Counted from the stretch's first letter, positions 16,850 to 53,837 are shown. The stretch: 64,000 nt of DNA from Bacteroidales bacterium (GCA_004557405.1 SFDZ01000009.1:15014-79013), one strand, 5' to 3'. Numbers and translations: made by a program. The notes: generated from the letters alone by a model not told the origin.

Positions 16850-18771
<1,922 letters not shown>

Positions 18772-18800
18772 AGACACACATCACCCCTCCGATAACAAAA

Positions 18801-18839
18801 ACGAGCGCTATTGTTCAAAACAGTAGCGTTCGTTTTTTT
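18801..18839. terminator. groEL intrinsic terminator, also the only hairpin available to end the convergent defence operon
   Basis: 10-bp stem ACGAGCGCTA (18801-18810) / TAGCGTTCGT (18824-18833) with one G-U pair on the plus strand, then a T-run at 18833-18839. Read on the minus strand it has one C-A mismatch and is followed by TTTTGTT. Confidence 0.75.
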
Positions 18840-18858
18840 GTTTTGTTTATGCGTGAAA

Positions 18859-19434
18859 CTAATCTAAGGATTCGGGTTCGTCTTCGTCTGTACTTTCAGC
18901 GACAGAAGCATCGAAAGCCAAAAAGACTTCGAGAAAAGCGGTCTCGCGGTAGAAAAAGTTGGGGTCATCAGTCAGTTTGTCCTCCATAAAATGGAACCCC
19001 CAGTTGGCGTATTCCTCCATTGTCTGCATCAGCATATCAACGGCTTTCCGCGGTGTCATTTCGCCTTTTTCAAGAGCGATGAAATCAATATCGGTGCGGG
19101 CGACAAGGGCAGTGAAAATGTACTCACGTAGTTTAGGGTAGGCTTTTCGCCCTTTTACAGAATCCAAATTGCCCCAATACTGGATGGGCTGGCCGAAAGT
19201 CTTGCGTTTTTGCGTGTCTTCTATAAGCGGTCGTTTTTGGTTGAAATACAGCCCTATAAAAAATGCCACAATAAATATTTCATAACCACCGCCAAAGACT
19301 TTGCCTCTGTCTTCGCGTAAAGATGTCGCACCACGACCGTAATCGCAAAAGTTCTTGATGATACTGTCCTCGTATCTCTTTTCCCATTGCGGGTTTCGGG
19401 CTGCCCACAAATCATATATCTTTTCTGCTGCCAT
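18859..19434 (-). CDS. Hypothetical 191-aa protein with an acidic C-terminal tail (last gene of the island operon)
   Basis: ATG 19434, 6 nt after the stop of the SMC-like gene. I recognise no motif with certainty. It may correspond to a small dnd-associated protein family (to be tested). The tail is SVAESTDEDEPESLD. Confidence 0.6.
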   Translation of the reverse strand: MAAEKIYDLWAARNPQWEKRYEDSIIKNFCDYGRGATSLREDRGKVFGGGYEIFIVAFFIGLYFNQKRPLIEDTQKRKTFGQPIQYWGNLDSVKGRKAYPKLREYIFTALVARTDIDFIALEKGEMTPRKAVDMLMQTMEEYANWGFHFMEDKLTDDPNFFYRETAFLEVFLAFDASVAESTDEDEPESLD

Positions 19435-19440
19435 AATTCG

Positions 19441-21615
19441 TTATCTTATTTGTGTAACAATCGTTTGAATGGTTGATAAATCCTTATCGTTGAAAGGCTC
19501 GACTTTCTCAATCCGATAAACAGAACAAGAAAGTTTATTGATTGTATCGAAATCCAATGCCTTTTGTCCTGTTGCCTTGTCGATGTTTAGCAAATCTTTC
19601 GTAACGATAACACATTGCTTGTCAATGGTATCTATCACATTGTAGAATGTATCTTCCTTGAAACCACCGAATGAAGATGTTGGCGCATCAAAAATCAATG
19701 GGTAATCCTGCTCACGTTTCAAAGTTGTGATTTGGGAAATGGCAAACAGAACCGACATATACATTGTTGTCTTCAATGCACCGTTTGGATTCTCAATGCG
19801 TGTGCCGTTGTCGCTGTATAGTTCGATACGTGCGGAATTGTTGATGGTTTTTCTGATTCGGATTATACCGTAGAAGTCGTTTTTGTTCAACTTCTGTAAA
19901 TACTTGTTCGATTCGGTTTCAAGCATTTGCAGGAAGTTGTTGATGTTTTGCTCTTTTGCGTTTGCAAATGCTTTGGTTATTCGTTCAAATGCGGTGTGAA
20001 CACGCTGATAAACCTGTGTCATTGAACTTGTTGGTTCAAGTTGCGACAATTTTTCTTGTATTTCAGCCCTCGCACTCTCCTTGAATTTCAATGTGGTTTC
20101 CAATTCAGAGACACGGCTTTCCGCACGGCTTTTAGCGTCAAAGAAGCCTCTCAAATCGGATATGCTCTTGTCAAGCAGTTCCGCACTTAACCCCGATTGC
20201 ATCAGCAAATCGTTTTGTTCTGTTTCTAATTCTTGCAACTGTTTTTCCACTTCTGCCAACTCGGCTTTTCTTTTAGTGACAAATTCCAAACGGTCGGAAA
20301 TGGTAGTCGCAATCTTTGAAATCTCTTGCTCTGTGTCTCCACTCAATTTGATTTGGCGAGAATGCAATTCATTGATGAATGAATTGGGAAACAGCGGCTT
20401 ATCGTCCTCTTCATTTGTGCCTGAATTTTTATTGGCCTCCGCTGCTATATGGGCAAGATATTCATTCAGTTTGTTGCACATAAACTCGTAAGCCTCCGAA
20501 CCTTTGGGGGCTGGGCGACCGCAGACTTTGCAGATTTCATCGTCAATCATTTCTTTCATTGTAGCCTCATCGGGCAAATTCCACGGCAAAGGAACAGCAT
20601 CATTGGCAAGTTTCTGGATTTTTGAGATAGCCTCACGTTCTCCAGCCTCTTTTGCTCTGCGTTCTGTTTCCTGCTTGTCAAGTCTTCGTTTTTCTTTGCT
20701 CAAAGCAGAGACTTTTGTGGAAAACTCTTTTATGATTGCAGGGAAGGAACGCAGAATCCAATATTCGTCCAACAGATTGGTGCTATACTCGCACGATGAC
20801 CATGCAACCAACTTCGCCCGTTTGTCTTTCAGCCCTTTGATGCGCTCTTTTATGGCTTGGTAGCGTTCCGATGTTTCTTGGTTCTTTTCCAATAATTCCA
20901 ACTTTGAGGAGAACTCGTTGATGGAAACTTTCTTTTGATTAAGTTCCGTTTTGAGGTTCTGAATATCGTTTGTAACATCATTCAGTTGCGTATTCAGTTC
21001 TTTTGCCTGATTAGATACCCTCTTGTCGTTTTGCAATTCTCGGTTTGACGCATTGGCTGATTTCTGTTCGAAATTTGATGTCATTTCTACCAACTCATCA
21101 AATTGTCTGATGCCCGAGAAAGTATCAACCAAAGTTTTCAATGCCGTATCATTGTCGAATACATTGAGTTCATTTTCGCCCTTGAACAAACAATACTTAC
21201 GAATGACAGGCTCGAAACATATATTCAAAAGCCTGTCGCCTGCGGTGAAATGGCGTTCGGCTCCTTCAATGAAATAACCAGAAAATTTGTAACCCCTTGT
21301 GCGGTATTCCGAATCAGATATTCTTTCAAAGGTGAAACTTTTCTCAATCTCCTTCTCGCCGTCGTGCTCAAACGTTATGCTGACAGAAACCTCATCGGAC
21401 TCACCAATTTCCAATTCTGATTTGCGTTTTTCGGAAATGTGTGAATCTTTTCGGTTCTCGCCTGTTGTGTCGAACAGCCATTCCAACGCCTCAAACAAGG
21501 TCGTTTTGCCATCACCATTATCTCCGATTACCAAAGTCAGACCTTTTGATAATGAAAGGTGATTGCTTCCATAGTAACTGCGGAAGTTGTTTATTTTTAT
21601 ATCTTTGATAATCAT
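19441..21615 (-). CDS. SMC/Rad50/DndD-like ABC-type ATPase with a central CxxC (zinc-hook-like) motif
   Basis: 724 aa. N-terminus IKINNFRSYYG...LTLVIGDNGDGKTTLFEALEWLF (Walker A, aa 31-39). About 400 aa of coiled-coil-type sequence with CKVC at aa 362-365, the exact midpoint. C-terminus YPLIFDAPTSSFG (Walker B / D-loop). Confidence 0.75.
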   Translation of the reverse strand: MIIKDIKINNFRSYYGSNHLSLSKGLTLVIGDNGDGKTTLFEALEWLFDTTGENRKDSHISEKRKSELEIGESDEVSVSITFEHDGEKEIEKSFTFERISDSEYRTRGYKFSGYFIEGAERHFTAGDRLLNICFEPVIRKYCLFKGENELNVFDNDTALKTLVDTFSGIRQFDELVEMTSNFEQKSANASNRELQNDKRVSNQAKELNTQLNDVTNDIQNLKTELNQKKVSINEFSSKLELLEKNQETSERYQAIKERIKGLKDKRAKLVAWSSCEYSTNLLDEYWILRSFPAIIKEFSTKVSALSKEKRRLDKQETERRAKEAGEREAISKIQKLANDAVPLPWNLPDEATMKEMIDDEICKVCGRPAPKGSEAYEFMCNKLNEYLAHIAAEANKNSGTNEEDDKPLFPNSFINELHSRQIKLSGDTEQEISKIATTISDRLEFVTKRKAELAEVEKQLQELETEQNDLLMQSGLSAELLDKSISDLRGFFDAKSRAESRVSELETTLKFKESARAEIQEKLSQLEPTSSMTQVYQRVHTAFERITKAFANAKEQNINNFLQMLETESNKYLQKLNKNDFYGIIRIRKTINNSARIELYSDNGTRIENPNGALKTTMYMSVLFAISQITTLKREQDYPLIFDAPTSSFGGFKEDTFYNVIDTIDKQCVIVTKDLLNIDKATGQKALDFDTINKLSCSVYRIEKVEPFNDKDLSTIQTIVTQIR

Positions 21616-21845
21616 ATATTTGATTTTAGAAAATTACTAACCTCGTTGTAGATTTCCCTTTCTGTTGCTTTTTGCTCATTTCGATTGATGATTTGAGCAA
21701 TGGCTTTAATTACAGGAATATCAGAATCCAAAGCGTCTGAAATTGAACTGTAATCATCGGGATTATAGCCATAGAAATTTATAAGCTGCTCATCAGCAAT
21801 CACAGCTTGCAAAATCTTATCTCCGTTGGTTTGATACGTATTCAT
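21612..21845 (-). CDS. Hypothetical 77-aa protein, translationally coupled (ATGA) to the SMC-like ATPase
   Basis: ATG 21845 lies 6 nt after the helicase stop, and its stop overlaps the ATG of the next gene. No recognisable motif. Very AT-rich. Confidence 0.55.
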   Translation of the reverse strand: MNTYQTNGDKILQAVIADEQLINFYGYNPDDYSSISDALDSDIPVIKAIAQIINRNEQKATEREIYNEVSNFLKSNI

Positions 21846-21851
21846 ATTGCA

Positions 21852-24128
21852 CTAATTAAATATGGATAGATTATAATGATTCAATACTTCTTGCAGTTCG
21901 TTGTCGGTATCATTCAGATTCTCTGACAACAAAGCAAAATCACGAACACGCCTCAACTCGCTTTGCACAAAGCTTTTCTCCAAAGCATAACATTCTTCAT
22001 CAAATACATTGTCAGGTATTACGATGAGGTCGTGAATGATGGCAAAACGCTTATCCTTGTGCGTGCGAAGAACACGACCACGGCGTTGAATGAATTGGCG
22101 TGGGTTTCCCGTGCTTGCGCAGAAAATAGCCAGTTCGCTTCGTGGCACATCAACACCTTCATCAAGGCACTTCATTGAGGTAAGCACATCAATGCTTCCA
22201 TCGGCAAACCCTTTGAGCATTGCATCACGGTCTGTCGATTCGGAAGTGAACTGACGGACAATGATATGGGAATCCATATCACGAACAATGCGAGTGAAGT
22301 CGTCAATCAGATGTTCGGTTTCGGGGTCGGACGCGATAGTGTCGGAATGGTCGAAAATATCAGCCTCGAAATTATCGGGCTTGTTGCCTTCGGGAACATA
22401 GACCAACGTGTATTTCAGACTGCCTTTTTCTTCCATACGCTGCCGAACAATTTCCTGAAAAGCGGATAACTTGTTGGCGGCTTTGTGAATGATGCGTTTG
22501 CGTTTCAGCAAAAGCATTTTCAATCGTTCCTGGCTTTCATCGTCACGGAAGCCCATTATTTTGACTATCTTCTTTGAAAGTTCAACATATTCAGCCATCT
22601 CGTTTTCAGTCAGGCGAACAATGTGTGGATAATAGTAATATCGGCACAAAGCCCCATTCTGAATGGCTTCAGCCATTGAATATTCGAAAGTGTAACTGTC
22701 AGAACAGCCAAAGAAATCCATCAGTTTGCGGTTGCCCGTATCGTCAAACTGTCGTTCGGGTGTTGCAGAGAGCCCAATGCGACGCAAATATTTTATGTCC
22801 GAAAGGCGTTGAGCCATCAAGCCACCGCCCATATTGTGAGCCTCGTCAGCGACAAGCAATAGTTTGTTTTTGGGGAATTGGTTCAATTCCATAAAAACAT
22901 TGGAACGGACAAACGAAGCGTAAGTTGATATGATTATGTAAGACAAATCGTTGTCGGCGTTTGTCATTTCAAGTAAGCGAAGATTGGCAACCGCCGATTT
23001 CCAATTGTTATACTTTGAGCAAACTTTTATAATGGTGCTGAAATTAAACTTTTTACATTCAATTTCCCATTGTTCGACAAGTGTAATGGTTGGAACAAGG
23101 ATAATGGCTTTGTAGTAGCCCAACTTGTTGTATATCTCAAGCAGACAGTTCAGTGAGGTAATGGTTTTGCCAGTACCTGTTGCCATTGCGAACAAGCCTT
23201 TCTGTTGGTTGCTCTTCCAATTCTCGAATGCTTGTTTCTGATATTCACGCGGACCAGATTCGTATGGGAAACGAGGCTTGCCAAAGTCAATTGGGGTGAC
23301 TTCTTCGCCTTTGGTCTTGAGTTTTTCAATTTCAACCTCAACTTTGTTCTTGGCTTTCTCCAGTGCCTTAATCACAGATTTGGGCAATGACTTATCAGCA
23401 ATATCCTGTTGGATAAATTTGTACTCATCTTCAAGCAAATCTTTCAATTCCTTGTTTTTGAACGATTCGGCAATATGTGTTTTCACTCTGTCGGTCGGAA
23501 CAAAAACGACATTTTCATCTTTGCCCGTAAAAACAAGTTCAAATTCTCCGCTGATTTTGTTTATTGTAGCAGACGCTGGATTGCCGTCCCAATCGCAGAA
23601 CGCCGTGAGGCTTTCAATGTTGTCAATCAATGCCGACCGTGAAAAGTTGCAAGAGCCATCGAAGCCGACCTTGTTCACGCCATCGCTGAAAATGCCTGTC
23701 TTTGTGTGAGAAATGCCAATGCCGTCTTTGGGTGCAACGATTCTAATATCAAGCCGATTGTTGCGAATGAGCCACGCAAGGCAATCGAAGAAGTGTGCAT
23801 CACGCTCTGAAAGAGTGTTTCTCAGTTTCTCAATGTCTGTAATATCAAAGAAAGGAATTGGCGTGTCAAGTTCTCCGTTGGCAATGGCGTTTTTATCCTG
23901 CTCGGTAAGGATGTCGTTTACAATCAGATTCATACGACCGCCATTATAAAGGAATGAAGCAAAACCATCAGCCAATACATTGATAGCTGAAGAAGAGAAG
24001 AAGCCCAACATCAAATTGAACTGTGTGGCATTACACAGACAATCAGCGAAGAAACCGATAGGCTCCCACTCTGTCCGCGATTTGAAATGGCGGTGTGCTG
24101 GAAATGAGACTTCTTTGAGCATGATCAC
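21852..24128 (-). CDS. PLD-family (HKD) nuclease domain fused to an SF2 DEAH helicase (ResIII-type)
   Basis: 758 aa from GTG 24128 (GTGA overlap with the DGQHR gene) or 756 aa from ATG 24122. HKD motif ISHTKTGIFSDGVNKVGFDGSCNFS. Helicase motif I FAMATGTGKTITS, II LLLVADEAHNMG, III GLSATP, VI FIQRRGRVLR. Confidence 0.8.
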   Translation of the reverse strand: MIMLKEVSFPAHRHFKSRTEWEPIGFFADCLCNATQFNLMLGFFSSSAINVLADGFASFLYNGGRMNLIVNDILTEQDKNAIANGELDTPIPFFDITDIEKLRNTLSERDAHFFDCLAWLIRNNRLDIRIVAPKDGIGISHTKTGIFSDGVNKVGFDGSCNFSRSALIDNIESLTAFCDWDGNPASATINKISGEFELVFTGKDENVVFVPTDRVKTHIAESFKNKELKDLLEDEYKFIQQDIADKSLPKSVIKALEKAKNKVEVEIEKLKTKGEEVTPIDFGKPRFPYESGPREYQKQAFENWKSNQQKGLFAMATGTGKTITSLNCLLEIYNKLGYYKAIILVPTITLVEQWEIECKKFNFSTIIKVCSKYNNWKSAVANLRLLEMTNADNDLSYIIISTYASFVRSNVFMELNQFPKNKLLLVADEAHNMGGGLMAQRLSDIKYLRRIGLSATPERQFDDTGNRKLMDFFGCSDSYTFEYSMAEAIQNGALCRYYYYPHIVRLTENEMAEYVELSKKIVKIMGFRDDESQERLKMLLLKRKRIIHKAANKLSAFQEIVRQRMEEKGSLKYTLVYVPEGNKPDNFEADIFDHSDTIASDPETEHLIDDFTRIVRDMDSHIIVRQFTSESTDRDAMLKGFADGSIDVLTSMKCLDEGVDVPRSELAIFCASTGNPRQFIQRRGRVLRTHKDKRFAIIHDLIVIPDNVFDEECYALEKSFVQSELRRVRDFALLSENLNDTDNELQEVLNHYNLSIFN

Positions 24129-25378
24129 AACGTTATTTCTGATATTCGTCGTTCTGCTTCCTGTAAATCAATATTGAATATCGTCGCATATTTGCTCTTC
24201 ATAGAACTTTTTTCTTTTTCAGTCAAAAGATTTATGTCTATCATTTTAATCAATAGGTAATAAACCAATGACTGATTTCTCATAATCATTTTTTTTGTTC
24301 TTGGATTCCATAAAATCATATCCCAAATATCTGAATGGACACACCGATTCAAATTGGTATAATTTTTTATTATCTCATCAATTGAATTAGTAGTTGTTAT
24401 GGATATTCTTGAGACAGCCTCAACAAATGGCAACAAACCTATTGGGCGGAAAAACAAGTTTCCTCCATTCTCACTAGAACGTAACTCTTCGGCAGGATTG
24501 TTAGAATTGTCATTAATGTAATTATTAATCTCATTAAATGTGGATTTCATACAATTCCAGAACTGTATCAAATAATCATTAAATTCATTGATAATTTCTT
24601 CTTCAGGTCTGTATTTTAGTTTATCATTGATTTGAGAATTATTGTAGGTTTTCCCATCTTTTTGGCTTATAAATGTTTTATATAATACCAAGTGACATTG
24701 ATACAATGTCATAAGCGATGTGAATGCTTCTTTGTCTGATTGTGGCATTGCTTTGCTGTTGCTAATTTTAATTCTATTACCCATAAATAAAGGATAGGAC
24801 TCCAACAATTCACGAGTTACTATAGCAACAATGTCGTCTTCATCAAGAGCAATAATATCCCCTAAACGAACAGGTTTGACATACCTGTTAAGCGTAGAGA
24901 AGATTCTTCTTGATTTTTCCCTGCCTACTGGTGTATTTTGATGACCAATAAGCATCACACTAATGGTTTCTCTGCCCAACTCTTCGTTTTCAATTAATGC
25001 AGCTCTGATTCCTTCAACTCTATGCTGACCATCAACAGGGAATATTTTTTCTTGTCCTGTAAATTCTAGCAATCCGACGTTATGATAAGGATTGTTCTCT
25101 ATTTCAAATCGAACTTCTGTCCACATTGGTTCCCCGTCATAAACTGCAAGAACAAGACTATCAAAAAAACGGTCTTCACGTTTTAGAATGTATTCTTTTA
25201 TCTTGATAAAATTATCTGTAAGAGAACGTTGGATTTGTTCTTTTAAAGAATTTGCAGTGTGTAATTCATCATCTACTTTTCTTACCATTGTACTAATTTG
25301 TCTAAAAGTCAAAGTAGTAGAATAGTAAACGGTATTGCCTATCTTTCCTCTTATGGCAGGTATTTTTATTGCTTCCAT
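24125..25378 (-). CDS. DGQHR-domain protein (DndB-like, ParB/Srx fold)
   Basis: 417 aa. IFPVDGQHRVEGIRAAL (DGQHR at aa 116-120), followed by RRIFSTLNRYVKPV, as in DndB/DGQHR families. About 30% GC. Confidence 0.8.
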   Translation of the reverse strand: MEAIKIPAIRGKIGNTVYYSTTLTFRQISTMVRKVDDELHTANSLKEQIQRSLTDNFIKIKEYILKREDRFFDSLVLAVYDGEPMWTEVRFEIENNPYHNVGLLEFTGQEKIFPVDGQHRVEGIRAALIENEELGRETISVMLIGHQNTPVGREKSRRIFSTLNRYVKPVRLGDIIALDEDDIVAIVTRELLESYPLFMGNRIKISNSKAMPQSDKEAFTSLMTLYQCHLVLYKTFISQKDGKTYNNSQINDKLKYRPEEEIINEFNDYLIQFWNCMKSTFNEINNYINDNSNNPAEELRSSENGGNLFFRPIGLLPFVEAVSRISITTTNSIDEIIKNYTNLNRCVHSDIWDMILWNPRTKKMIMRNQSLVYYLLIKMIDINLLTEKEKSSMKSKYATIFNIDLQEAERRISEITL

Positions 25379-25380
25379 AA

Positions 25381-25905
25381 CTAAAATGCATTAATTGGTT
25401 CTTGGACTTCTATTTTATCTGGTATTTCAGAATTAAAAGGCGGTCTAATCGCTCTAATAAGAGCAACCTCATTTTTATCTATTATGTCATTATTCGTTTC
25501 TGGATAATAACGATAAAACAAATAATCTTTCCAATACTTTTTCATTCTTACAATTTCTGTTCTGGAATTATCGGAATCATACTCTTTAGCACGTTTACGA
25601 ATATATTGTTTCCCCTCGGAATAGTGGCATCTTCCAATATATACAATGTATTTTTCAATAAACGGAAGATTAATACCTTTAAGATAAAACATATATACAC
25701 CACCTGTATTCGTCGGTAGATTATTAATATCTTCAGAAACAATGCTACCTTCATAATACTTTATTTCTTTTGACCAATGAGCTTCCTCAACTATGGGATT
25801 AGCATTGTCAATCTTATTGTCAACCCAATGTTTAGGATTGTGATAATAAGTTATATCATATAACTTATCCTCATCATTTTCATTTATGAATGCGTTAATT
25901 CTCAT
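25381..25905 (-). CDS. GIY-YIG-like nuclease domain protein
   Basis: ORF 25381..26010 trimmed to ATG 25905 (1 nt after the PAPS-reductase-family stop). GGVYMFYLKG ... KYIVYIGRC ... IRKRAKEY ... NEVALIRAIRPPFN reproduces the GIY / YIG / R / E..li....P.fN pattern. Confidence 0.6.
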   Translation of the reverse strand: MRINAFINENDEDKLYDITYYHNPKHWVDNKIDNANPIVEEAHWSKEIKYYEGSIVSEDINNLPTNTGGVYMFYLKGINLPFIEKYIVYIGRCHYSEGKQYIRKRAKEYDSDNSRTEIVRMKKYWKDYLFYRYYPETNNDIIDKNEVALIRAIRPPFNSEIPDKIEVQEPINAF

Positions 25906-25906
25906 A

Positions 25907-27010
25907 TCATATAAAACAATTAGCACACATAATTTCATCGCCAAGAACATCAACAAGCGTTGTTCCTTTGCTTTGCTTGCGGTTTTCTTCCTGACGCTTA
26001 ATAATGTCAAGCTTTATTTGGCGTACACGTTCGGGATTGCATAATTCAGCCAAACTCTCGTTTTGATTCCATGTATAGCCATCTTTTTCAAACTCCATTG
26101 CTTGTCGATATAAATCAGGGTGTTGCTCGTAGAGCCAAATCCATTCTATCTTCTGTTGGAAAAAACAGAAATAGCAACCTGAACGGCTACGGCAATATGT
26201 TCCTACTTTCCCATCTACTTCAAATGGAATTTCCTCATAATATGCTGGAACGCCTACGCCACTTTCTCGAAGCAATCGGAAAATGTCTTCTTTCACAAGA
26301 ACATCAGTGTTGTCAAGCAACGGAAAATCATCCAATTTGCCTACAGGGTAGTCTGTGGTTTTCAAAAAAGCGAACACAACTTTATTGAATAGTTTTATGT
26401 CAAAATCCAACAGGGCATTCAGTTTTTTTGAATAATAAAACTGCTTTGTTATTTGTTTAGTGACAGTTTCCATAAGCTCGTCTTTCATAAAGTTGTTGGG
26501 GCATAGCAAATCGTACAATGAAACAAACTGCTCCAAGTTGTCGTTATGCAACACTTTGTTTATCACATCAAGGCTCCAAATGTTTCTTCTGAAAGGAAAC
26601 ACCGCCTGAATGTTCGGCTTTGACGATATGTAACCGTCGCGGTCCTCGTCGCCACGAATGCCAACGTATGAGATTGCCAAATCGTCGCCAACATACTTTT
26701 CAAACTCTGCTAGTTTCATCTTCTGTGTGCACCAGCGAGCTTGAGGCGAAGGCAAGAATCCTCCTGCGGCTTTCAAAAAATGGTGGAACGGTGTGGGTTC
26801 GGAACTGCCCTCGGCCGCCCGCAGTCTTACAATTTTTCCCAAATAGGTTTCGAGCCTTCGGATAAGCACCTCGGTTTCCTCCAACTCACAACCTGTGTCC
26901 GAATTGTAGTATTCAATCTTCAGATTCGGATATTTCTGTTTCAAGTATATGGAAAGAGCGGCGCTATCTTTCCCGCCTGATATTCCTAATATGTGTCTTA
27001 CGTTGGTCAT
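25907..27010 (-). CDS. PP-loop ATP pyrophosphatase of the PAPS-reductase family (SspD/DndC-like)
   Basis: 367 aa. ILGISGGKDSAALSIYL (SGGKDS at aa 11-16). C-terminal cysteine cluster CRSRSGCYFCFF. ATGA overlap with the upstream YhcG gene. Confidence 0.8.
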   Translation of the reverse strand: MTNVRHILGISGGKDSAALSIYLKQKYPNLKIEYYNSDTGCELEETEVLIRRLETYLGKIVRLRAAEGSSEPTPFHHFLKAAGGFLPSPQARWCTQKMKLAEFEKYVGDDLAISYVGIRGDEDRDGYISSKPNIQAVFPFRRNIWSLDVINKVLHNDNLEQFVSLYDLLCPNNFMKDELMETVTKQITKQFYYSKKLNALLDFDIKLFNKVVFAFLKTTDYPVGKLDDFPLLDNTDVLVKEDIFRLLRESGVGVPAYYEEIPFEVDGKVGTYCRSRSGCYFCFFQQKIEWIWLYEQHPDLYRQAMEFEKDGYTWNQNESLAELCNPERVRQIKLDIIKRQEENRKQSKGTTLVDVLGDEIMCANCFI

Positions 27011-28137
27011 CGCTTTTCTTCGCTATCAAGTTCTAATTCTATATCCTCCATTTGTGGCAAAGCCGATTTTACATCCGCAAAAAGTTTTTCCGTTTCGTAT
27101 TGGGCTATACCAAGAGGTTGCGTCACACCACGCAAGGCGAATTTTGCTTTTGTGTCGCTTTTGGTACGACAAAGCAACAAACCTATTGTCGGATTATCCT
27201 CCGATGTCTTAACATATTCGTCCACAGCCGATATGTAAAAGTTCAGTTTGCTGACGAATTCGGGAATAAACTCCACTGCCTTAAGTTCAACCACCACATA
27301 GCAATGCAGTTTCAGATGATACATCAAAATGTCAAGGTAGTAATCATCGCCATCTACGGCCAAATGATACTGCCGCCCTACAAAAGAAAAACCTCGCCCC
27401 ATTTCAAGCAGGAAATCTGTAACTCTTTTTGTCAATTCTTTTTCAATGCTACGTTCATTCTGTAATGCGGCAGAACCAATAAAGTTGAAATTGTAAGGGT
27501 CTTTGAATGTGTGTTGTGCCAAATCGGATTGAATTGGCGGCAATGTATTGATGAAATTGTTGATGGATTTTCCTTTGGCGTATATGTAACCATTGGCGAT
27601 TTGCGCCAACATAACATCACGACTCCAGCCTTCTTGCTCTGTAGCCAGGATATAAAATGCGCGTTCTGCTATATCCTCAACTTTCGGGATTAGTGATATA
27701 TGGTGATACCAAGTGATTTGAGTGAGAGACACTTGAATATGATCTTTGCCTTTTTCTGCCAATTTGGCAAGTGGCACTTGCCAAAATTCAGAATTCTCCA
27801 ATTTGGCAAGCGGCACTTGCAGAATTGGGAAATCAGGATAGGCTTCGGCAAAACGCTTCATATTTCTCAAATTTCTATCTGAGTACCCCTTGTCATCGGG
27901 AAATGATGCAGCCAAATCTTTCGATAGCTGGGCGATAACTTGTGTTCCCCAACCTTGTTCTTTCTGCTTTTTTATGATGTCGGTGCCAATCTTCCAATAC
28001 AGAGCCAATAGTTCGGCATTAACACAGAGCACGGCTTTGTATTTTGCTTGTGCTATCAATGTTACAATATCCTGCCGCCAATTTTCGTAGCCTTCGGGCA
28101 TAAAGCCAGCTTTAATTATGTTTTCTATATCTTTCAT
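27007..28137 (-). CDS. YhcG/DUF1016-family PD-(D/E)xK nuclease
   Basis: 376 aa. N-terminal DUF1016-type helical domain (LYWKIGTDII..Q.EQGWG..VI.QLS.DL...FP...GYS.RNL..M..F). Nuclease core GDDYYLDILMYHLKLHCYVVVELKAVEF. ATGA overlaps on both sides. Confidence 0.8.
   Translation of the reverse strand: MKDIENIIKAGFMPEGYENWRQDIVTLIAQAKYKAVLCVNAELLALYWKIGTDIIKKQKEQGWGTQVIAQLSKDLAASFPDDKGYSDRNLRNMKRFAEAYPDFPILQVPLAKLENSEFWQVPLAKLAEKGKDHIQVSLTQITWYHHISLIPKVEDIAERAFYILATEQEGWSRDVMLAQIANGYIYAKGKSINNFINTLPPIQSDLAQHTFKDPYNFNFIGSAALQNERSIEKELTKRVTDFLLEMGRGFSFVGRQYHLAVDGDDYYLDILMYHLKLHCYVVVELKAVEFIPEFVSKLNFYISAVDEYVKTSEDNPTIGLLLCRTKSDTKAKFALRGVTQPLGIAQYETEKLFADVKSALPQMEDIELELDSEEKR
27759..27820. repeat. 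39-nt in-frame tandem duplication inside the YhcG gene, containing a 23-bp palindrome
   Basis: CCAATTTGGCAAGTGGCACTTGC (27759-27781) and CCAATTTGGCAAGCGGCACTTGC (27798-27820) match at 22/23 with a 39-nt period, encoding QVPLAKL twice. TTTGGCAAGTG-G-CACTTGCCAAA (27763-27785) is a perfect palindrome. Confidence 0.9.
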
Positions 28138-31100
28138 CGCTTCATTTTCTTATTCAATATTTCAAGCAACGCGCAGATTTCCGCATTGCTGTTGCCCGAA
28201 AGTATCGCGTTTATTTTTGCCTCTAACTCCGAAACTCGCTTTTTGTCCTTTTCAGGCAGAATGTATGTCTGCGTTCTGATGCTTGTTCCGCTATTCGTCA
28301 CCATATCAAACGAATAGGCGACATCACTGTCAGAAATTGCTTTCTTTGAAATGTCGGCGTACTTTTCGCACTCGCGAAAAAGGAACACCAAGTCATCGGC
28401 TAACTTATCCTCTTCTTCGTCGCGCAGCGATTCGAGTTTATGTTCCAGAATCGGATAACAAATGGACTGATACCACAATGTGCGGTTGTCATACTCTGCC
28501 ATCACGTGCTGATAGAATTCCTTTTGCTTGGCTGTCAGCAAATGCGTTTTGACATTTGCCAACCGTTGCCTGATTTCCTCAACATACTCGTTGTAGTCGG
28601 CCGATTCAAGCCCAAGTCCGTCAACAAGACGGATTTCAAGGCGGTCGATGAGTTGCGAGTAGCACGAACGCAACTCGCGTATGGCCTTCTGTATCACATT
28701 GCCGTATTCTTCGATGTCGGTGTCAGATTTCGTTTTTTTCGTAAATCCTAAAGCGTCGGGTAAATCTTCGAAAAACGCCTTTTCGGGATCTTTGGCCGTT
28801 GCCAGAATATCGCGGAAGCGCATTGTGGATTTATGCGAGAACTTGCGGGTGTGCTTTGTGTAATCGTTTAACCTTTTGTAGAATAAAAGAAACGGCTTTA
28901 TGGTCTCGATAAAACTCTGCGTTGTAATATTGAACTCATCGCCTAAATTAACAAAGCGACGGTATTGGTTGAAGAAGTCGAGCCGTACGCCGTCCACCTC
29001 AAACGCCTTGACGGCATAGTCGGCGGGGTGCTTCTGCAGCAAATCGAAAAAGAGCATATCCACGTTGGGAATATATGCGCCTCGGTTTGTATCGTACAAG
29101 GCAAAATCCTGCCGCTTGATGAACAGGAACGTCGGTATCCAGAAATCGAGAAAACCTTGTTTCAGTTTGAAAGGCTGTGCTGACAGAATCTTTATCAGTT
29201 CCGATATTTTCCGCTGCTTGCCAACTGTGCTTTTCAGGAAACGCATACTCGCATTCCACAATGTGGCTATGCCATCGTTTGTGGGCGCATCAGCAAAACC
29301 GCTGCCTGTATGTAACCCTGTGTTTTTCAGCAATGAATAATAGATTGTTTTTTCGGGCGGAAATTTATCTTTTTCAAAACCTAAATCTACTTCATCATAA
29401 TGCTCGACAAGGGCGTTCAGATAGTTTTTGCGTGCCGAAGAAATTGCACCACTCAACTTGTGACGGTTGAACAACTCATTGAGCATTACAGGTGTCTCTG
29501 AATAAACTTCATCGCAAACTTTCGAGAGCAGTTTGTTGAAATCTTTATGTGAAGAAACCTTCTGTTTTTCGCCTTTGAAAATCCATACGACTTGATTTTT
29601 GTATGAGAAAAGGTTGTCGCTCACCGCTTTGTTGAGTAGCGTTTCCTCATATTCCTTCAGTCTCTGTATCTCGTTGTATGCTACACGGTCTGCTTCTTTG
29701 TCAATCAGCACTTTTGTCAGAATGTAATCGTATTTCTGAATGCTATACAGATGGTCAATGATTTTTTCGGTATTACTGAAATAAGCATAAATGACAGCGT
29801 GTTCTGTGTTTGCACTTGTTTCCTTGATGGTGTCGAGCGTATTTGCGTTGGCAGAAAAAATCAGCTCTATGTATCCGTCAGTATCACCCGTCGGCGTCAT
29901 GTCAACGGCATTTTCGCGTATTTCATACTCGAAATAACGGGGCGTGCCTTTATGGTAATAGTGAGCCTTGACTGGTGAAATGCGTTTGCTGACGAAGTGC
30001 CGCAAGTCATCGATAAAGGCTATCGGGCGTGCCACTTGAGTACCGGCTTTCTGAATCTCTAATTCCAAATCAATGTCGGTTCCTTCAAAAAGCAAAAGAC
30101 GCTGTTTGTATTCTGCATATCGTATGATTTTGAATCGTTGCAGTTTGCCGATAATATCTACAGCATCCTGCACGTTCATTGTCAAACGTGCATATTCAGC
30201 CATCTGTTCGGGCTTCATTGCAAAACTTGCTATTCCGAACAGATTCAGCAATCCGATAGCCTTCACAATTTTTATGGCATCTGTCATCTGCTCGGCATTG
30301 TTCCAATCCAACCCTTCAACTCTTTCGATAGAAACTTGTATTGAGTTCCAACCCATTGAGTCCATATTGGCATCTTTCAAGTATGAATAGAAGTTGTAAA
30401 CAATGTAGTCATATACGTGTGCCAAGTTGTAGGTCAGATTGGTGGTTGCTGTAAATTCGGACAATGAATTTGATCCGCAAGCAGCAAGGAACGAGAAAAG
30501 CGAGCGTTCGTTTTGTCCGTAACGCTGAATGGCGGCGGTAACAGCAAACGCCGAGAACGAGTCGAGCGGATAAAGTTGTTGTGCCGTTTCTGCGGAAAAT
30601 GCGTTGGAAACAAATTTTGTTTCAATAGCCAACTGATAGATTTGGCTTGCGGTTTCACTTCCTTTTTGCGGCAGGTTGGCATGCAACTGTTGCGAAGCCA
30701 AAAACAAAAGTTGTTCAATGGGTTCCACAAATGTTATTTCCTTGAACCTGCCTTTCACTTTTGTCCATTCGTTCTTCTGCGTTTCGGTCAGATTTCTGGC
30801 GTATGCTCCGAAGTTTTGGTGCAGCGTTGTCAGTAGCAATATATCGCGCGAAGGAACATTGATAAACTCCGCAAACTTCTGAAGAAAATACAACTCCTGT
30901 TCGGGATTGTTTTTGGCGGCGTGTTCCAGCACTTTGCCAAATTCGTCTATCACGATGAGCAAAAACTTATTCTGCTCTTTCAGTTGGTTGTAATACTTTT
31001 TCAACTCATCGAGAATGCTTTGCGACTGTCCGTCCATATTTAGATTTCGTCCCAACAAAGTGGAAAGTTCCATATAGTCGCCGACAATGTTCAGAATCTC

Positions 31101-31388
31101 AAAATCCGCTGTCTGCGAAAGATTTTTCGGATTCAACAGCCTTTTCGTCTTGTTGCCGCGGTTCAAATCCGATTCCAGAGCCAGAAGGAACGAAGATTTC
31201 CCTGTTCCGTATGTACCGATAATCGTAAACGAGTGTATTCCAGAACGAAAGTCGTCAATAATGTTTTGTGCTGCCTTTCTTCCGTTTGGAGTAACAATAT
31301 ATTGGAATTCAGCAGGGAATCCATTTTCAATATTTGCCGATAAGCTAAATCCTTTATTCATAGTAATTGTCCAATACTTGTTTTGCAT
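28134..31388 (-). CDS. Large P-loop NTPase (SspC-like / BrxC-PglY-sized ATPase)
   Basis: 1084 aa (1075 aa if the start is the second ATG at 31361). Walker A GTYGTGKS (aa 58-65), Walker B LLIVIDEFGK, then about 850 aa of mostly helical sequence. It overlaps the DUF4007 gene by 35 nt, or 8 nt from the second ATG. Confidence 0.7.
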   Translation of the reverse strand: MQNKYWTITMNKGFSLSANIENGFPAEFQYIVTPNGRKAAQNIIDDFRSGIHSFTIIGTYGTGKSSFLLALESDLNRGNKTKRLLNPKNLSQTADFEILNIVGDYMELSTLLGRNLNMDGQSQSILDELKKYYNQLKEQNKFLLIVIDEFGKVLEHAAKNNPEQELYFLQKFAEFINVPSRDILLLTTLHQNFGAYARNLTETQKNEWTKVKGRFKEITFVEPIEQLLFLASQQLHANLPQKGSETASQIYQLAIETKFVSNAFSAETAQQLYPLDSFSAFAVTAAIQRYGQNERSLFSFLAACGSNSLSEFTATTNLTYNLAHVYDYIVYNFYSYLKDANMDSMGWNSIQVSIERVEGLDWNNAEQMTDAIKIVKAIGLLNLFGIASFAMKPEQMAEYARLTMNVQDAVDIIGKLQRFKIIRYAEYKQRLLLFEGTDIDLELEIQKAGTQVARPIAFIDDLRHFVSKRISPVKAHYYHKGTPRYFEYEIRENAVDMTPTGDTDGYIELIFSANANTLDTIKETSANTEHAVIYAYFSNTEKIIDHLYSIQKYDYILTKVLIDKEADRVAYNEIQRLKEYEETLLNKAVSDNLFSYKNQVVWIFKGEKQKVSSHKDFNKLLSKVCDEVYSETPVMLNELFNRHKLSGAISSARKNYLNALVEHYDEVDLGFEKDKFPPEKTIYYSLLKNTGLHTGSGFADAPTNDGIATLWNASMRFLKSTVGKQRKISELIKILSAQPFKLKQGFLDFWIPTFLFIKRQDFALYDTNRGAYIPNVDMLFFDLLQKHPADYAVKAFEVDGVRLDFFNQYRRFVNLGDEFNITTQSFIETIKPFLLFYKRLNDYTKHTRKFSHKSTMRFRDILATAKDPEKAFFEDLPDALGFTKKTKSDTDIEEYGNVIQKAIRELRSCYSQLIDRLEIRLVDGLGLESADYNEYVEEIRQRLANVKTHLLTAKQKEFYQHVMAEYDNRTLWYQSICYPILEHKLESLRDEEEDKLADDLVFLFRECEKYADISKKAISDSDVAYSFDMVTNSGTSIRTQTYILPEKDKKRVSELEAKINAILSGNSNAEICALLEILNKKMKR

Positions 31389-32235
31389 CCAACTGCTGTG
31401 TAAACTGCAACTGCCTGATTCCTGCTACATCGCTGTAGGCCAAATAATTAGAATATTTTTCTGATAATATTTTCAGCATATCAATCACTTCCAGATCTGT
31501 CATACAAAATATTAATCCTAATTCGTGCAGAGTGTCGTATGGTATGCTGTTGTCGTTCTCCTCTTTTACCGTCAGCAAAGCAAACAGAAAAATGGCTGGA
31601 ATCACTTGTCGTTTGCCCTCTATGTTAAAGAAGTATCGGCTACGTTTGTCCTCTGAATTTTCCGTTTTATCACTTTGCCTGAGCAAATCCAAATCCATCA
31701 GTAGGGTTGAAAACTCCTCATTTGATTGCGGATTACGTGGTAAACAATAGTTCAACAACAAAACTCCGACATCCTTTTTGACTGTGTTTTCATTAAACAA
31801 ATTCGCTTTGCCCGCTTCAATCATTTTGCGCTTCACAAAATTGACCACTTGTTCTCGTTCGAACAGCCTGCGTTCTTTTTGGAAGTCAATAAAAAACATT
31901 TTGTATAAAGACGCTCCGCCAGTGTAAACTAAAAGGAAATGCAACAACCAAAGAGTCCCTAAATCTTCCGTAAATGGGTCTTTGCCAATATCAGTGCTAA
32001 AAATATACTCCGCAAGCCATTCTGTTTTTGCACCTTTATCCAATCCAAAAACTTTATACCAATAGCGAATAGATGATACCATGTTTTTGCCTACACCTAA
32101 ATCTACTACGGCATTGGGTGAGTTGAAATCTTTATGTGCTGTTACGAAATCATAACCTTTTTTCGTCCACAATGTTTTACAAGGAAATGATTCATGACCT
32201 GAGAATGTGTATGCTTTGTTATTGTGTACATCCAT
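31354..32235 (-). CDS. DUF4007-family protein (SspB-like, phosphorothioation-associated)
   Basis: 293 aa. The N-terminal block YTFSGHESFPCKTLWTKKGYDFV matches my recollection of the DUF4007 signature (F.rHEtF..R..Wl.Kg). As I recall, the family is described as co-occurring with PAPS-reductase genes. First gene of the operon. Confidence 0.6.
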   Translation of the reverse strand: MDVHNNKAYTFSGHESFPCKTLWTKKGYDFVTAHKDFNSPNAVVDLGVGKNMVSSIRYWYKVFGLDKGAKTEWLAEYIFSTDIGKDPFTEDLGTLWLLHFLLVYTGGASLYKMFFIDFQKERRLFEREQVVNFVKRKMIEAGKANLFNENTVKKDVGVLLLNYCLPRNPQSNEEFSTLLMDLDLLRQSDKTENSEDKRSRYFFNIEGKRQVIPAIFLFALLTVKEENDNSIPYDTLHELGLIFCMTDLEVIDMLKILSEKYSNYLAYSDVAGIRQLQFTQQLDAKQVLDNYYE

Positions 32236-32292
32236 AGTGCTTTGTTAGGAATCTCTAATAATAAGGGTATATCCCTTTATTTTTCAATTCCG

Positions 32293-32323
32293 CAAAAATA
32301 CAAAAAAAATGATATATGGCAAA
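32293..32323 (-). promoter_or_regulatory. Candidate Bacteroidota sigma-A promoter of the island operon
   Basis: Minus-strand TATTTTTG (32300-32293) is an exact TAnnTTTG match. TTTG (32323-32320) lies 19 nt upstream. The ATG of the first gene is at 32235. Confidence 0.45.
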
Positions 32324-32333
32324 AATCTTGTAC

Positions 32334-32362
32334 AAAAAAAGTGCAACCCTTGTGGGCTGCAC
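32334..32362 (-). terminator. dnaK intrinsic terminator
   Basis: Minus strand: GTGCAGCCC (32362-32354) - ACAA - GGGTTGCAC (32349-32341), followed by TTTTTTT (plus A-run 32334-32340). It lies 36 nt after the dnaK stop. Confidence 0.8.
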
Positions 32363-32397
32363 TCTCGTGTTGCGTGATAAACTATTGTTTATCCGAT

Positions 32398-34317
32398 TTA
32401 TTTCACTTCTTCGAAATCGGCATCTTGTACGTTGTCGTCGTTCTTGTCGTTGCTGTTGCCGGCTTGCTGTTGCGCATTGAAGTCGGCACCGGCGTTTTGC
32501 GCGCCTTGCTGCGCATTGGCGGCGTTGTACATGTCCTGACTTGCAGCGTGGAAGGCGGTGTTCATCGCTTCTATCGCTTTGTCGATGGCGTCCAAATCCT
32601 GTGCTTTGTGCGCTGCTTTCAGCTCTTCGAGGGCTTTTTCGATAGGCGCTTTTTTGTCGGCCGGAATCTTGTCGCCCAGCTCTTTCAGTTGTTTCTCGGT
32701 TTGGAATATCATGCCGTCGGCCTGATTCAGTTTGTCGATGCGTTCGCGTTCTTTCTTGTCGGCGTCGGCATTGGCTTCGGCTTCGGCTTTCATGCGTTTG
32801 ATTTCCTCTTCGCTCAAACCGCTCGATGCTTCGATGCGGATGGTCTGCTCTTTGCCGGTGGCTTTATCTTTGGCCGATACTTTCAGTATGCCGTTGGCAT
32901 CGATGTCAAATGTAACTTCGATTTGCGGAACGCCGCGCGGTGCGGCCGGAATGCCGTCGAGGTTGAACATACCGATTTGTTTGTTCTGGCTGGCCATCGG
33001 GCGTTCGCCTTGCAGCACGTTTATTTGTACCGATGGCTGATTGTCGCTGGCGGTGGAGAACACTTCCGATTTCTTGGTCGGAATGGTGGTGTTGGCTTCG
33101 ATGAGTTTGGTCATCACGCCACCCATGGTTTCGATGCCGAGCGATAGCGGTGTTACGTCAAGCAACAACACATCTTTCACTTCGCCGGTGAGCACGCCGC
33201 CTTGGATGGCTGCGCCTACGGCTACCACTTCGTCGGGGTTGACGCCTTTCGACGGCACTTTGCCGAAGAATTTCTCAACCAATTGTTGGATGGCCGGAAT
33301 ACGTGTCGAGCCGCCCACGAGGATCACTTCGTCGATGTCCGATTTGCTCAAACCGGCGGCCTTCAGCGCGTTTTCGCACGGTACCAAGCAGGCTTGTATC
33401 AGACGGTCGGCCAGTTGCTCGAATTTGGCGCGGGTCAGTGTTTTTACCAAGTGCTTCGGCACTCCGTTCACCGGCATGATGTAGGGCAGGTTTATTTCGG
33501 TCGAGGTCGAACTCGAGAGCTCGATTTTGGCTTTTTCGGCTGCCTCTTTCAAACGTTGCAGTGCCATCGGGTCTTGGCGCAAATCGACGCCTTCGTCCTT
33601 TTGGAATTCGTCGGCCAGCCAATCGATGATGACGTGGTCGAAATCGTCGCCGCCGAGGTGCGTGTCGCCGTTGGTTGATTTTACTTCGAATACGCCGTCG
33701 CCGAGTTCAAGAATCGAAATATCGAACGTGCCGCCGCCGAGGTCGAATACGGCGATTTTCATATCTTTGTTCGATTTGTCGAGACCGTAAGCCAAGGCGG
33801 CTGCGGTGGGCTCGTTGACGATACGGCGCACTTTCAGACCTGCAATCTCGCCGGCCTCTTTGGTGGCCTGACGTTGAGCGTCGCTGAAGTATGCCGGCAC
33901 GGTGATGACGGCTTCGTTCACCTCCTGACCGAGATAATCTTCGGCGGTTTTTTTCATTTTTTGCAGAATCATGGCCGAAATTTCTTGCGGCGTGTACAGC
34001 CGACCGTCAATATCGACGCGCGGCGTGTTGTTGTCGCCTTTCACCACTTTGTATGGTACGCGTTCAATCTCTTTGCCTACGCGGTCGTAGGTTTCGCCCA
34101 TGAAACGCTTGATAGAATAGACAGTTTTGTGCGGGTTCGTAACTGCTTGACGTTTAGCAGGATCGCCCACCTTGCGTTCGCCACCGTCGATGAAAGCCAC
34201 GATGGAAGGTGTTGTGCGTTTGCCTTCGCTGTTGGCTATTACGACAGGTTCATTTCCTTCGAGGACAGCCACACACGAGTTGGTTGTGCCTAAGTCGATA
34301 CCAATAATTTTTCCCAT
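32398..34317 (-). CDS. dnaK: Molecular chaperone DnaK (Hsp70)
   Basis: 639 aa. [41 protein letters not shown]. Confidence 0.98.
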
Positions 34318-53751: not shown

Positions 53752-53837
53752 ATTTGTTACTTTTTGAAGTTCAAATAATTCTTCAACTCTAAATTCTCCC
53801 CACTTAACATTTTTTAGTTTTTCGTTAAGTGGGGAAT

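Follow-up and report, generated by a model that had tools for sequence, protein, structure and literature searches.

Introduction

In Ssp-type DNA phosphorothioation, sspB, sspC and sspD typically form a three-gene operon, and the cysteine desulfurase IscS can replace SspA in trans (PMC8092258). The restriction module PbeABCD has been described beside dndCD or methylases (PMC10853773, PMC6459918), and its members have been re-annotated as an HKD-superfamily 2 (SF2) protein, a small fast-evolving protein, a zinc-hook ABC ATPase and a DndE cognate (PMC10853773). In type I restriction-modification (R-M) operons, DUF1016 (YhcG) and RhuM genes are enriched next to and between the core genes (PMC9881135). 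Here we analyze a 64,000-nucleotide stretch of DNA (GCA_004557405.1 SFDZ01000009.1:15014-79013, hereafter the window) from an uncultured Bacteroidales bacterium of the gut or rumen. The original prediction for this DNA, made from the sequence alone, had noticed an SspB-SspC-SspD-like core with a yhcG nuclease gene placed inside it and no cysteine desulfurase. Our analysis favors, with a probability of about 0.7, a single ten-gene defense operon that joins SspBCD to a PbeABCD-like restriction module and carries yhcG as interchangeable accessory cargo.

Comparison with described systems

The locus resembles SspBCD-SspFGH of Vibrio anguillarum FF-93 (PMC8092258) in its three-gene modification module, the lack of a linked sspA and the co-oriented multi-gene restriction module downstream. 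It differs from that system in having PbeA/PbeC-like proteins in place of PADLOC SspF/G/H matches, and an extra gene between sspC and sspD. The same SspB, SspC and SspD families occur in SspABCD-SspE of Vibrio cyclitrophicus FF75 and E. coli 3234/A, and SspE is found between sspD and pbeA in six relatives of the window. Unlike those systems, the window has neither SspE nor SspA, and a DndB-like DGQHR protein together with a 174-residue protein (p174) takes the SspE position. PADLOC detected no SspF/G/H and no DUF262-DUF1524 SspE among the island proteins of the window.

The downstream genes are comparable to the Pbe genes of DndCDEA-PbeABCD in Haloterrigena jeotgali A29, which belongs to the CxC ABC-ATPase systems (PMC6459918, PMC10853773). 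Gene order, sizes and the placement directly downstream of a phosphorothioate (PT) module agree, and the PADLOC PbeA model is matched over its full length. In contrast to H. jeotgali A29, the partner is Ssp (AAA+ SspC, winged helix-turn-helix SspB) and not Dnd (DndD/DndE), the fourth protein has no DndE likeness, and the host is bacterial. YhcG connects the locus to type I R-M operons with DUF1016/YhcG or RhuM (PMC9881135), where the same YhcG lineage follows hsdM and RhuM is, as in the Ssp operons, an alternative or additional passenger; the host operon here serves phosphorothioation, not methylation. PrrC-EcoprrI (PMC1484252) is the paradigm for silencing and activation of such a passenger; for YhcG a relation of this kind is hypothetical.

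BREX type 4, the BrxP/BrxC PT system (PMC12914056), shares with the locus an SspC homologous to BrxC (217.9 bits; this homology has been reported, PMC12914056), a PP-loop SspD similar to the BrxP domain and reliance on a presumed host desulfurase in Bacteroidales. The differences are the lack of BrxZ/PglZ and BrxL among the annotated island and window open reading frames (ORFs), scores that favor SspC and SspD widely, and the presence of a DUF4007 SspB. The Ssp–Pbe pairing and the two-slot architecture presented below are recombinations of known modules. Neither was described in the literature searched, although Krishnan et al. 2020, who reportedly first defined the CxC clade, may already show Ssp-linked examples.

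The modification module

All four ORFs named in the original prediction were recovered from the sequence at the same coordinates and in the same order, on the minus strand. The Pfam and PADLOC profiles bear out their assignment to SspB-SspC-SspD, the order being kept with one extra gene between sspC and sspD. The DUF4007 call, on which this assignment depended, stands on profile search: SspB matches Pfam DUF4007 over 1-288 of 288 positions (5.3e-69) and PADLOC SspB at 3.2e-84, and it finds the SspB entries 6juf/6lb9 in the PDB (5e-12). SspC is matched by PADLOC SspC over model positions 7-1038 of 1039 (E = 0, 1245.6 bits), while BrxC reaches merely 217.9 bits; a weak orc1/cdc6 match was seen in NCBIfam. 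Its Walker A (G61-T-G-K-S65) and Walker B (D148-E149) motifs are invariant in 69 homologues. The size of this ATPase had been regarded as BrxC/PglY-like and as a departure from Ssp. About 1075 residues is, in fact, typical for SspC, since the PADLOC SspC models among the matches listed have 828-1123 positions and the best of them is matched end to end.

SspD scored 286.7 bits against PADLOC SspD (5.6e-86), as compared with 20.5 for DndC and 13.5 for BrxP. The SGGKDS motif predicted at residues 11-16 was confirmed (S11-G-G-K-D-S16); it is invariant in 81 homologues, as are Cys41, 94, 279, 282, 362 and 365. We found no Pfam PAPS_reduct match at E ≤ 0.01, all NCBIfam matches were far below cut-off, and a sequence search of the PDB with SspD returned nothing. 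An assimilatory CysH/CysD identity was ruled out by the missing PAPS_reduct match and by the neighbors, which are defense genes. The PP-loop protein is not of the CysH/CysD type that would have contradicted the earlier assignment. By their profiles, SspB, SspC and SspD belong to the true Ssp families of DNA phosphorothioation and form a plain SspBCD module.

The downstream PbeABCD-like module

The PbeA-like protein is matched by PADLOC PbeA over 1-722 of 722 positions (E = 0, 1113.4 bits), with PLD-like matches at its N-terminus. The full-length fit shows that proteins closely related to this PbeA were already among those from which the database was built. NCBIfam TIGR04095 dnd_restrict_1 ("DNA phosphorothioation system restriction enzyme") gave 411 bits, below its cut-off of 600. 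In about 70 homologues the motifs H141xK143..D149..G158-S159-x-N161, GTGKT, DEAH and QRRGR are invariant. The PbeC-like protein matches PADLOC PbeC (9.4e-21) and Pfam AAA_15, AAA_23 and SMC_N; Walker A and B, C362-K-x-C365 at the midpoint of its 724 residues and D643 are invariant in about 70 homologues. At the pbeB position, an ORF of 72-80 residues occurs in every locus with pbeA and pbeC except L078, which is N-masked there. With 77 residues, the PbeB-like protein of the window is near the archaeal PbeB (66 residues, PMC6459918) in size.

The fourth protein, of 191 residues, is kept in 55 of 60 related loci and has no Pfam, PADLOC or NCBIfam family match. A likeness to DndE was looked for and not found: a 23-sequence profile run against the PDB found no DndE, its best match being MalT by chance (E = 0.76), and the AlphaFold model (predicted template modeling score, pTM, 0.76) gave a best Foldseek E of 2.9, with none at E ≤ 0.001. 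Some pbeD homologues continue past the acidic tail with C-terminal extensions of 80-190 residues, namely L032, L053 and L072 (~382 residues) and P0306, P0309 and P0353 (272-279 residues). The name "glycoside hydrolase family 15" that several homologues bear in nr seems to be an annotation error passed on from entry to entry. Overall, the profiles and positions suggest a PbeABCD-like downstream module, with PbeA and PbeC supported by profiles and invariant residues, PbeB assigned by position and size, and no DndE likeness found in the fourth protein.

Linkage of the two modules in related loci

SspD homologues are very abundant in Bacteroidales. We used the best 80 SspD genome loci (79-96% identity), and the frequencies given for the gene junctions apply to this clade. 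The loci come from rumen and gut metagenome-assembled genomes and from isolates, among them Segatella bryantii DSM 11371, Prevotella dentasini JCM 15908, P. corporis DSM 18810, Phocaeicola coprophilus An818 and a Parabacteroides distasonis. Mapping the window proteins onto them revealed a conserved cassette, sspB-sspC-sspD-pbeA-pbeB-pbeC-pbeD. pbeA, pbeC and pbeD follow sspD in 55 of the 60 loci that have at least 9.5 kb downstream of sspD, and look-ups starting from PbeD homologues recovered the same seven-gene cassette.

This linkage bears on another possibility, in which SspBCD would be an epigenetic orphan beside an independent system of Pbe-like genes that does not read phosphorothioate. 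CxC/Pbe systems do occur without PT genes as well, their role as a PT restriction arm has been doubted (PMC10853773), and a known partner was reported to be lacking from 83.9% of sspBCD loci (PMC8092258). We nevertheless consider two independent modules improbable. The 55 linked loci of 60 usually have them 3-20 nucleotides apart with no separate promoter match, searches started from PbeD return sspBCD every time, and in six loci the two modules are separated by SspE, an effector for which PT sensing is proven. The preferred reading, a joint operon, is the one carried forward below.

Operon structure

The original prediction was right about the first four genes, but it halted at 25907 and missed six co-directional genes downstream. 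With these, the locus is a full operon for modification plus, probably, restriction. The complete operon spans ~13.4 kb in the order sspB-sspC-yhcG-sspD-p174-dndB-pbeA-pbeB-pbeC-pbeD (Table 1). It lies in an island between dnaK and groEL (17140-34317), with groEL convergent with pbeD. The GC content of the island is low (0.30-0.46, versus 0.51-0.54 in dnaK and groEL) and reaches its minimum in the p174-dndB pair (0.30-0.33). An identical island is present in assembly GCA_022783925.1. A megablast of the island against E. coli genomes returned no match, and E. coli is rejected as the source in spite of a GC content of about 50% and the flanking dnaK. All ten genes are on the minus strand, and neighbors overlap or are separated by at most 9 nucleotides.

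A sigma-70 promoter scan was uninformative (34 matches versus 32.5 expected), and the Bacteroidetes consensus was used instead, which gave 8 matches in the window versus 1.8 expected. The match upstream of sspB is the sole one on the minus strand in 18859-32400, and the dnaK terminator hairpin lies just upstream of it. The co-directional tight spacing, the single minus-strand promoter match and the terminal hairpin together indicate one transcription unit. A perfect Bacteroidetes consensus is also present in antisense orientation inside sspC (30616-30644, plus strand); it may be due to chance, though most other matches in the window precede genes.

The start of sspC overlaps the sspB stop as ATGAATAA. 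The 1084-residue ATPase ORF of the original prediction exists at 28134-31388, but the start is most likely at 31361 (1075 residues) because the region conserved in 69 homologues opens with the residue that follows Met10, and gene predictions for identical contigs have the same start. A 209-residue ORF overlapping the 3' end of sspD is really a 174-residue gene starting at 25905, one base past the sspD stop. The predicted ATGA coupling on both sides of yhcG was seen in the sequence, as gcgATGAaag at 28134-28137 and gcgATGAcc at 27007-27010. Both joints share the identical nine bases AAGCGATGA, at sspC/yhcG (28134-28142) and at yhcG/sspD (27007-27015), and the last two codons and the stop of YhcG consequently copy those of SspC. 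This repeat was not found at the 3' joint of other YhcG-bearing Ssp loci. It could be an insertion scar, or a coincidence beyond the required ATGA.

Table 1. Features of the ten-gene island in the window (positions counted from its first nucleotide)
Feature	Position	Strand	Basis or remark
Putative Bacteroidetes-type promoter, TTTG-N19-TATTTTTG	32293..32323	-	~55 nucleotides upstream of the sspB ATG; predicted function
sspB (DUF4007), 293 residues	31354..32235	-	Pfam, PADLOC and PDB
sspC (AAA+ ATPase), ~1075 residues	28134..31361	-	Longest ORF extends to 31388 (1084 residues)
yhcG (DUF1016_N + YhcG_C), 376 residues	27007..28137	-	Pfam, PADLOC PDC-S02
sspD (PP-loop ATP pyrophosphatase), 367 residues	25907..27010	-	PADLOC SspD
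p174, 174 residues	25381..25905	-	Constant partner of the DndB-like gene
DndB-like DGQHR (ParB superfamily), 417 residues	24125..25378	-	Cargo of the sspD/pbeA slot
pbeA-like HKD nuclease-SF2 helicase fusion, 756-758 residues	21852..24122	-	PADLOC PbeA
pbeB-like small protein, 77 residues	21612..21845	-	Position and size only
pbeC-like zinc-hook ABC ATPase, 724 residues	19441..21615	-	PADLOC PbeC, Pfam
PbeD-position protein, 191 residues, acidic C-terminal tail	18859..19434	-	Position; small size
Bidirectional terminator, 19-bp stem	18797..18837	.	Between pbeD and convergent groEL

Two cargo slots in the conserved cassette

At the sspC/sspD junction, 57 of 76 loci carry no insert; the stop of sspC and the start of sspD overlap or adjoin there, typically in an ATGA. 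The other 19 loci hold a same-strand insert of 0.95-1.9 kb, three of them the window's own allele. YhcG (PDC-S02) accounts for eight of these inserts, an AAA_15/AAA_21 ATPase (PDC-M31A/B), with a partner of ~230 residues in seven of the eight cases, for another eight, RhuM (PDC-S05) for two, and DUF3990 with two small ORFs (PDC-M13) for one. The presence of yhcG had been presented as an anomaly within a modification core; given the 57 empty junctions, it is better described as optional cargo.

The sspD/pbeA junction is seamless in 47 of 74 loci, usually with 3-20 nucleotides between the two genes, and the remaining loci carry one or more cargo types. These are p174 + DndB (six loci), SspE (967 bits; six loci, e.g., L004), DUF262 with a Ser/Thr kinase (five loci), a HATPase_c_3 trio (seven loci), one or two unannotated small ORFs of 111-127 residues (four loci, two alone and two beside other cargo), a KAP NTPase (one locus) and a BrxC/D-like trio (one locus). 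The p174-dndB pair was placed after pbeD in two further loci. Both junctions are usually seamless. Where they are not, in a minority of loci, the genes inserted vary but share the strand of the operon, and most of them match defense families, known or candidate.

Among the YhcG alleles found in the slot identity is only 22-27%, as against 61-96% for sspC and sspD on either side, and it breaks exactly at the gene boundaries. The low identity between conserved flanks points to cassette exchange and not to vertical divergence. The slot content also bears on the alternative offered in the original prediction, a different DNA modification installed by the PP-loop enzyme, in a form in which YhcG would alter or join the modification reaction. 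All that speaks for it is where yhcG lies, with sspC on one side and sspD on the other, and that it is translationally coupled to them. Against it, 57 of 76 related operons lack any gene at this junction, and unrelated genes are found there in other loci (an ATPase pair, RhuM, DUF3990). Whatever the slot contains, 212 residues of SspD are invariant, the PP-loop and the six cysteines among them, and SspB is already the Ssp nickase (PMC8092258). SspD is 79-96% identical with or without yhcG, which lends no support to a different modification. We regard a role of YhcG in the modification chemistry as scarcely credible.

With respect to carriage of the cassette, two of the related loci have informative neighbors. 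In L170 (18496-20412) both slots of the cassette are empty and an HSP70 gene is again close by, as are genes for DUF3987 and DUF5675, and in L173 (13293-19154) the neighbors are ArdA, DUF3987, PriCT_2 and an HTH_17 excisionase-like gene. These contexts suggest carriage on integrative mobile elements.

YhcG as a passenger of modification operons

YhcG matches Pfam DUF1016_N (2.7e-38) and YhcG_C (1.6e-55), as well as the PADLOC defense candidate PDC-S02 (4e-131). As the original prediction held, the gene at 27007-28137 is a complete YhcG PD-(D/E)xK gene, with two domains and an intact D...ExK motif; its catalytic residues, D269, E284 and K286, do not vary among 32 homologues. The ratio of nonsynonymous to synonymous rates could not be computed, since the synonymous sites are saturated. 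The proportions of nonsynonymous and synonymous differences are 0.12-0.21 and ~0.8 (saturated), respectively, and both domains are under purifying selection. From the intact triad and this selection, YhcG is predicted to be functional. A sequence search of the PDB with YhcG returned nothing, and our literature search found no experimental paper on YhcG nuclease activity or phage defense.

A metagenome scan yielded 80 closest relatives with 66-79% identity, 0 of 80 in an Ssp operon. Fifty-five of them lie directly after hsdM, where yhcG often overlaps the hsdM stop, and at least ~12 have no adjoining hsdM or hsdS. The type I arrangement is hsdR-hsdM-yhcG-(RhuM or small ORF)-hsdS, in many cases with an invertible hsdS shufflon and a tyrosine recombinase. 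Among protein-database relatives, one of 81% identity occupies the same slot of another Ssp operon, one of 83% stands alone between housekeeping genes, and one of 78% is in a type I shufflon. In the Ssp operon with the 81% relative, the ORF that follows yhcG starts with the SspD N-terminus MNVRHILGIS (L166, 9131-9578; L167, 7464-8150). Gene callers end this SspD-like ORF at 66 residues, and a DUF3791 gene comes next; sspD may be interrupted by a further cassette there, or the locus may be decaying.

These contexts could also fit a latent abortive-infection effector, which would be physically silenced by SspBCD (or by the HsdM/HsdS methyltransferase in type I operons) and freed when a phage inhibitor disables that complex, like PrrC in EcoprrI. 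yhcG is embedded in two unrelated kinds of modification operon, adjoining modification subunits with stop-start overlaps, and RhuM, another type I passenger, occupies the same Ssp slot. The PrrC paradigm is a precedent (PMC1484252), and backup suicide nucleases have been proposed in Dnd neighborhoods (PMC10853773). However, YhcG alleles of only 22-27% identity between conserved sspC and sspD argue against a co-evolved interface, and YhcG would have to recognize two complexes that are unrelated. Members of this lineage are also found alone (the 83% relative), and at least ~12 of the 80 metagenome loci have no hsdM or hsdS beside yhcG. On balance, a guarded suicide effector is unlikely, though it deserves more weight than the other alternatives.

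A selfish, homing-endonuclease-like mobile gene that settles at operon junctions without benefit to the host would account for the precise in-register insertion, for the 9-bp AAGCGATGA repeat at both joints and for the same YhcG lineage in three different contexts. It accounts poorly for the unrelated non-nuclease cargo that shares the slot and for the strong purifying selection on both domains, including the non-catalytic N-terminal one. We found no terminal repeats and no intein or intron features, the AAGCGATGA repeat is not in other YhcG-bearing Ssp loci, and PADLOC lists the family as defense candidate PDC-S02. Pure selfishness is a still more improbable explanation than two independent modules.

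Accessory cargo with a defensive function remains the preferred reading of yhcG. YhcG would be an autonomous second-line PD-(D/E)xK DNase, its synthesis coupled to that of the modification proteins by a shared promoter and the stop-start overlaps, and it would be dispensable for modification. Its autonomy is suggested by this dispensability, by alleles that swap without co-evolution, and by its presence in two unrelated modification operons and also alone.

Taken further, the seven-gene sspBCD-pbeABCD may represent a distinct, undescribed PT restriction-modification type that dominates the Bacteroidales Ssp loci. Its seamless junctions would be exchange sites swapping whole defense genes in register, and YhcG and RhuM would be general passengers of type I R-M and Ssp operons that may monitor the integrity of the modification machinery. 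We offer this tentatively, as a possibility with the odds against it. If true, some of the sspBCD modules so far counted as orphan (~84% of the total) could belong to this type. For most sspBCD loci no restriction partner is known (PMC8092258), and in this large Bacteroidales clade the partner appears to be PbeABCD-like. The operon provides a testable candidate for the reading of PT marks in abundant gut and rumen bacteria, and a bacterial setting in which the dispute over the role of PbeABCD could be settled (PMC6459918 versus PMC10853773). The slots show that YhcG and RhuM, long noticed in type I R-M but never explained, are not methylation-specific, which narrows the functional hypotheses. 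Operons that are the same but for their cargo are natural isogenic comparisons.

The DndB-like gene and p174

The DndB-like protein matches Pfam DndB (1.4e-31) and NCBIfam DGQHR (6.9e-30). Its gene has a GC content of 0.33, and that of p174 is 0.30. The two co-occur in every locus that has either gene; p174 homologues were seen in L005, L006, L010, L019, L029, L055 and L056. p174 had no family match in an NCBIfam scan. Its invariants (GGxYMF, YIGR, K104-R105, E146 and N158) are spaced as in a GIY-YIG nuclease. A profile search of the PDB found HflC alone (E = 0.2), one of eight family members matched Pfam GIY-YIG (E = 0.051), and hhalign against the E. coli UvrC and I-TevI domains gave probabilities of 1.2% and 0.2%, respectively. 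The GIY-YIG-like pattern is a possible lead. If it is real, DndB and p174 would mirror SspE, which combines a ParB-like domain and a nuclease. The DndB-like protein and SspE both belong to the ParB superfamily and alternate at the same position, and p174-DndB may on these grounds form a sensor/regulator–effector pair analogous to SspE.

Sulfur supply

The original prediction correctly stated that no cysteine desulfurase is encoded in the operon or in the 64-kb window. A Pfam scan of 40 window ORFs of at least 191 residues, including every non-nested ORF of at least 300 residues, found no class-V aminotransferase (Aminotran_5). A tblastn search with E. coli IscS gave a best E of 4.3 in the window and in 83 related loci with flanks of up to 10 kb. 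The IscS query was verified against PDB 1p3w (907 bits), and the same search detected SspA (6m4j) and DndA (3vax).

The missing desulfurase is not a departure from known Ssp systems, as had been thought: sspA is unlinked in 83 of 83 related loci, and supply in trans is normal in the literature. The V. anguillarum FF-93 model system works with IscS in trans (PMC8092258), and sspBCD have been defined as the minimal set, with IscS or a homologue acting in trans (PMC12914056). A related PP-loop PT system was reconstituted in B. thetaiotaomicron, where the host SufS is the presumed sulfur supplier (PMC12914056). A missing sspA and an SspC of more than 1,000 residues are both normal and give no grounds for flagging the locus.

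Proposed mechanism

With the above results in hand, we propose that a housekeeping desulfurase of the SufS/IscS/NifS type, encoded elsewhere, would load persulfide sulfur for SspBCD. SspD would activate by adenylation, SspB would recognize and nick the DNA, and SspC would give ATP-driven scanning, as can be deduced from the studied systems (PMC8092258, PMC12914056). The expected product is a single-strand PT, probably CpsC in CCA-type motifs; gut isolates with sspBCD contain CpsC (PMC12914056). The PbeA HKD-helicase, a predicted nuclease and translocase, would then attack unmarked DNA together with PbeC, PbeB and the 191-residue protein (PMC6459918, PMC10853773), with PbeC probably acting as a DNA-looping ATPase. 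The DndB-like protein and p174 may act together in regulation or sensing, as a ParB-type module for which SspE can stand in.

Several points weigh against the operon as we read it. The modification, restriction and nuclease activities are predictions from the genes alone. The sulfur donor is an assumed one, the data comprising this window. On the restriction side, the PbeB-like protein had no profile match in the NCBIfam scan and is assigned by position and size, and the 191-residue protein, without sequence or fold likeness to DndE, also agrees with Pbe in position and size. The one pairing in which PbeABCD is known to function is that with DndCDEA, in a haloarchaeon, and its role in PT-directed restriction has been questioned (PMC10853773). 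The autonomy of YhcG is deduced from its contexts, and a physical link to the modification complexes is compatible with the data. The structural model of YhcG was too poor for use (predicted local distance difference test score 52, pTM 0.38), having been built on a shallow alignment in which the listed homologues are all at least 68% identical.

Other observations in the window

A second modification-type locus lies at 52663-55910 on the minus strand, in a low-GC patch (0.42). It encodes a 690-residue N6_Mtase and a 362-residue type I specificity protein (Methylase_S), with no HsdR nearby. The 64-kb window further contains two full-length RelA/SpoT-family genes with HD_4, RelA_SpoT, TGS and ACT domains, at 5470-7644 and 61202-63421, both on the plus strand.

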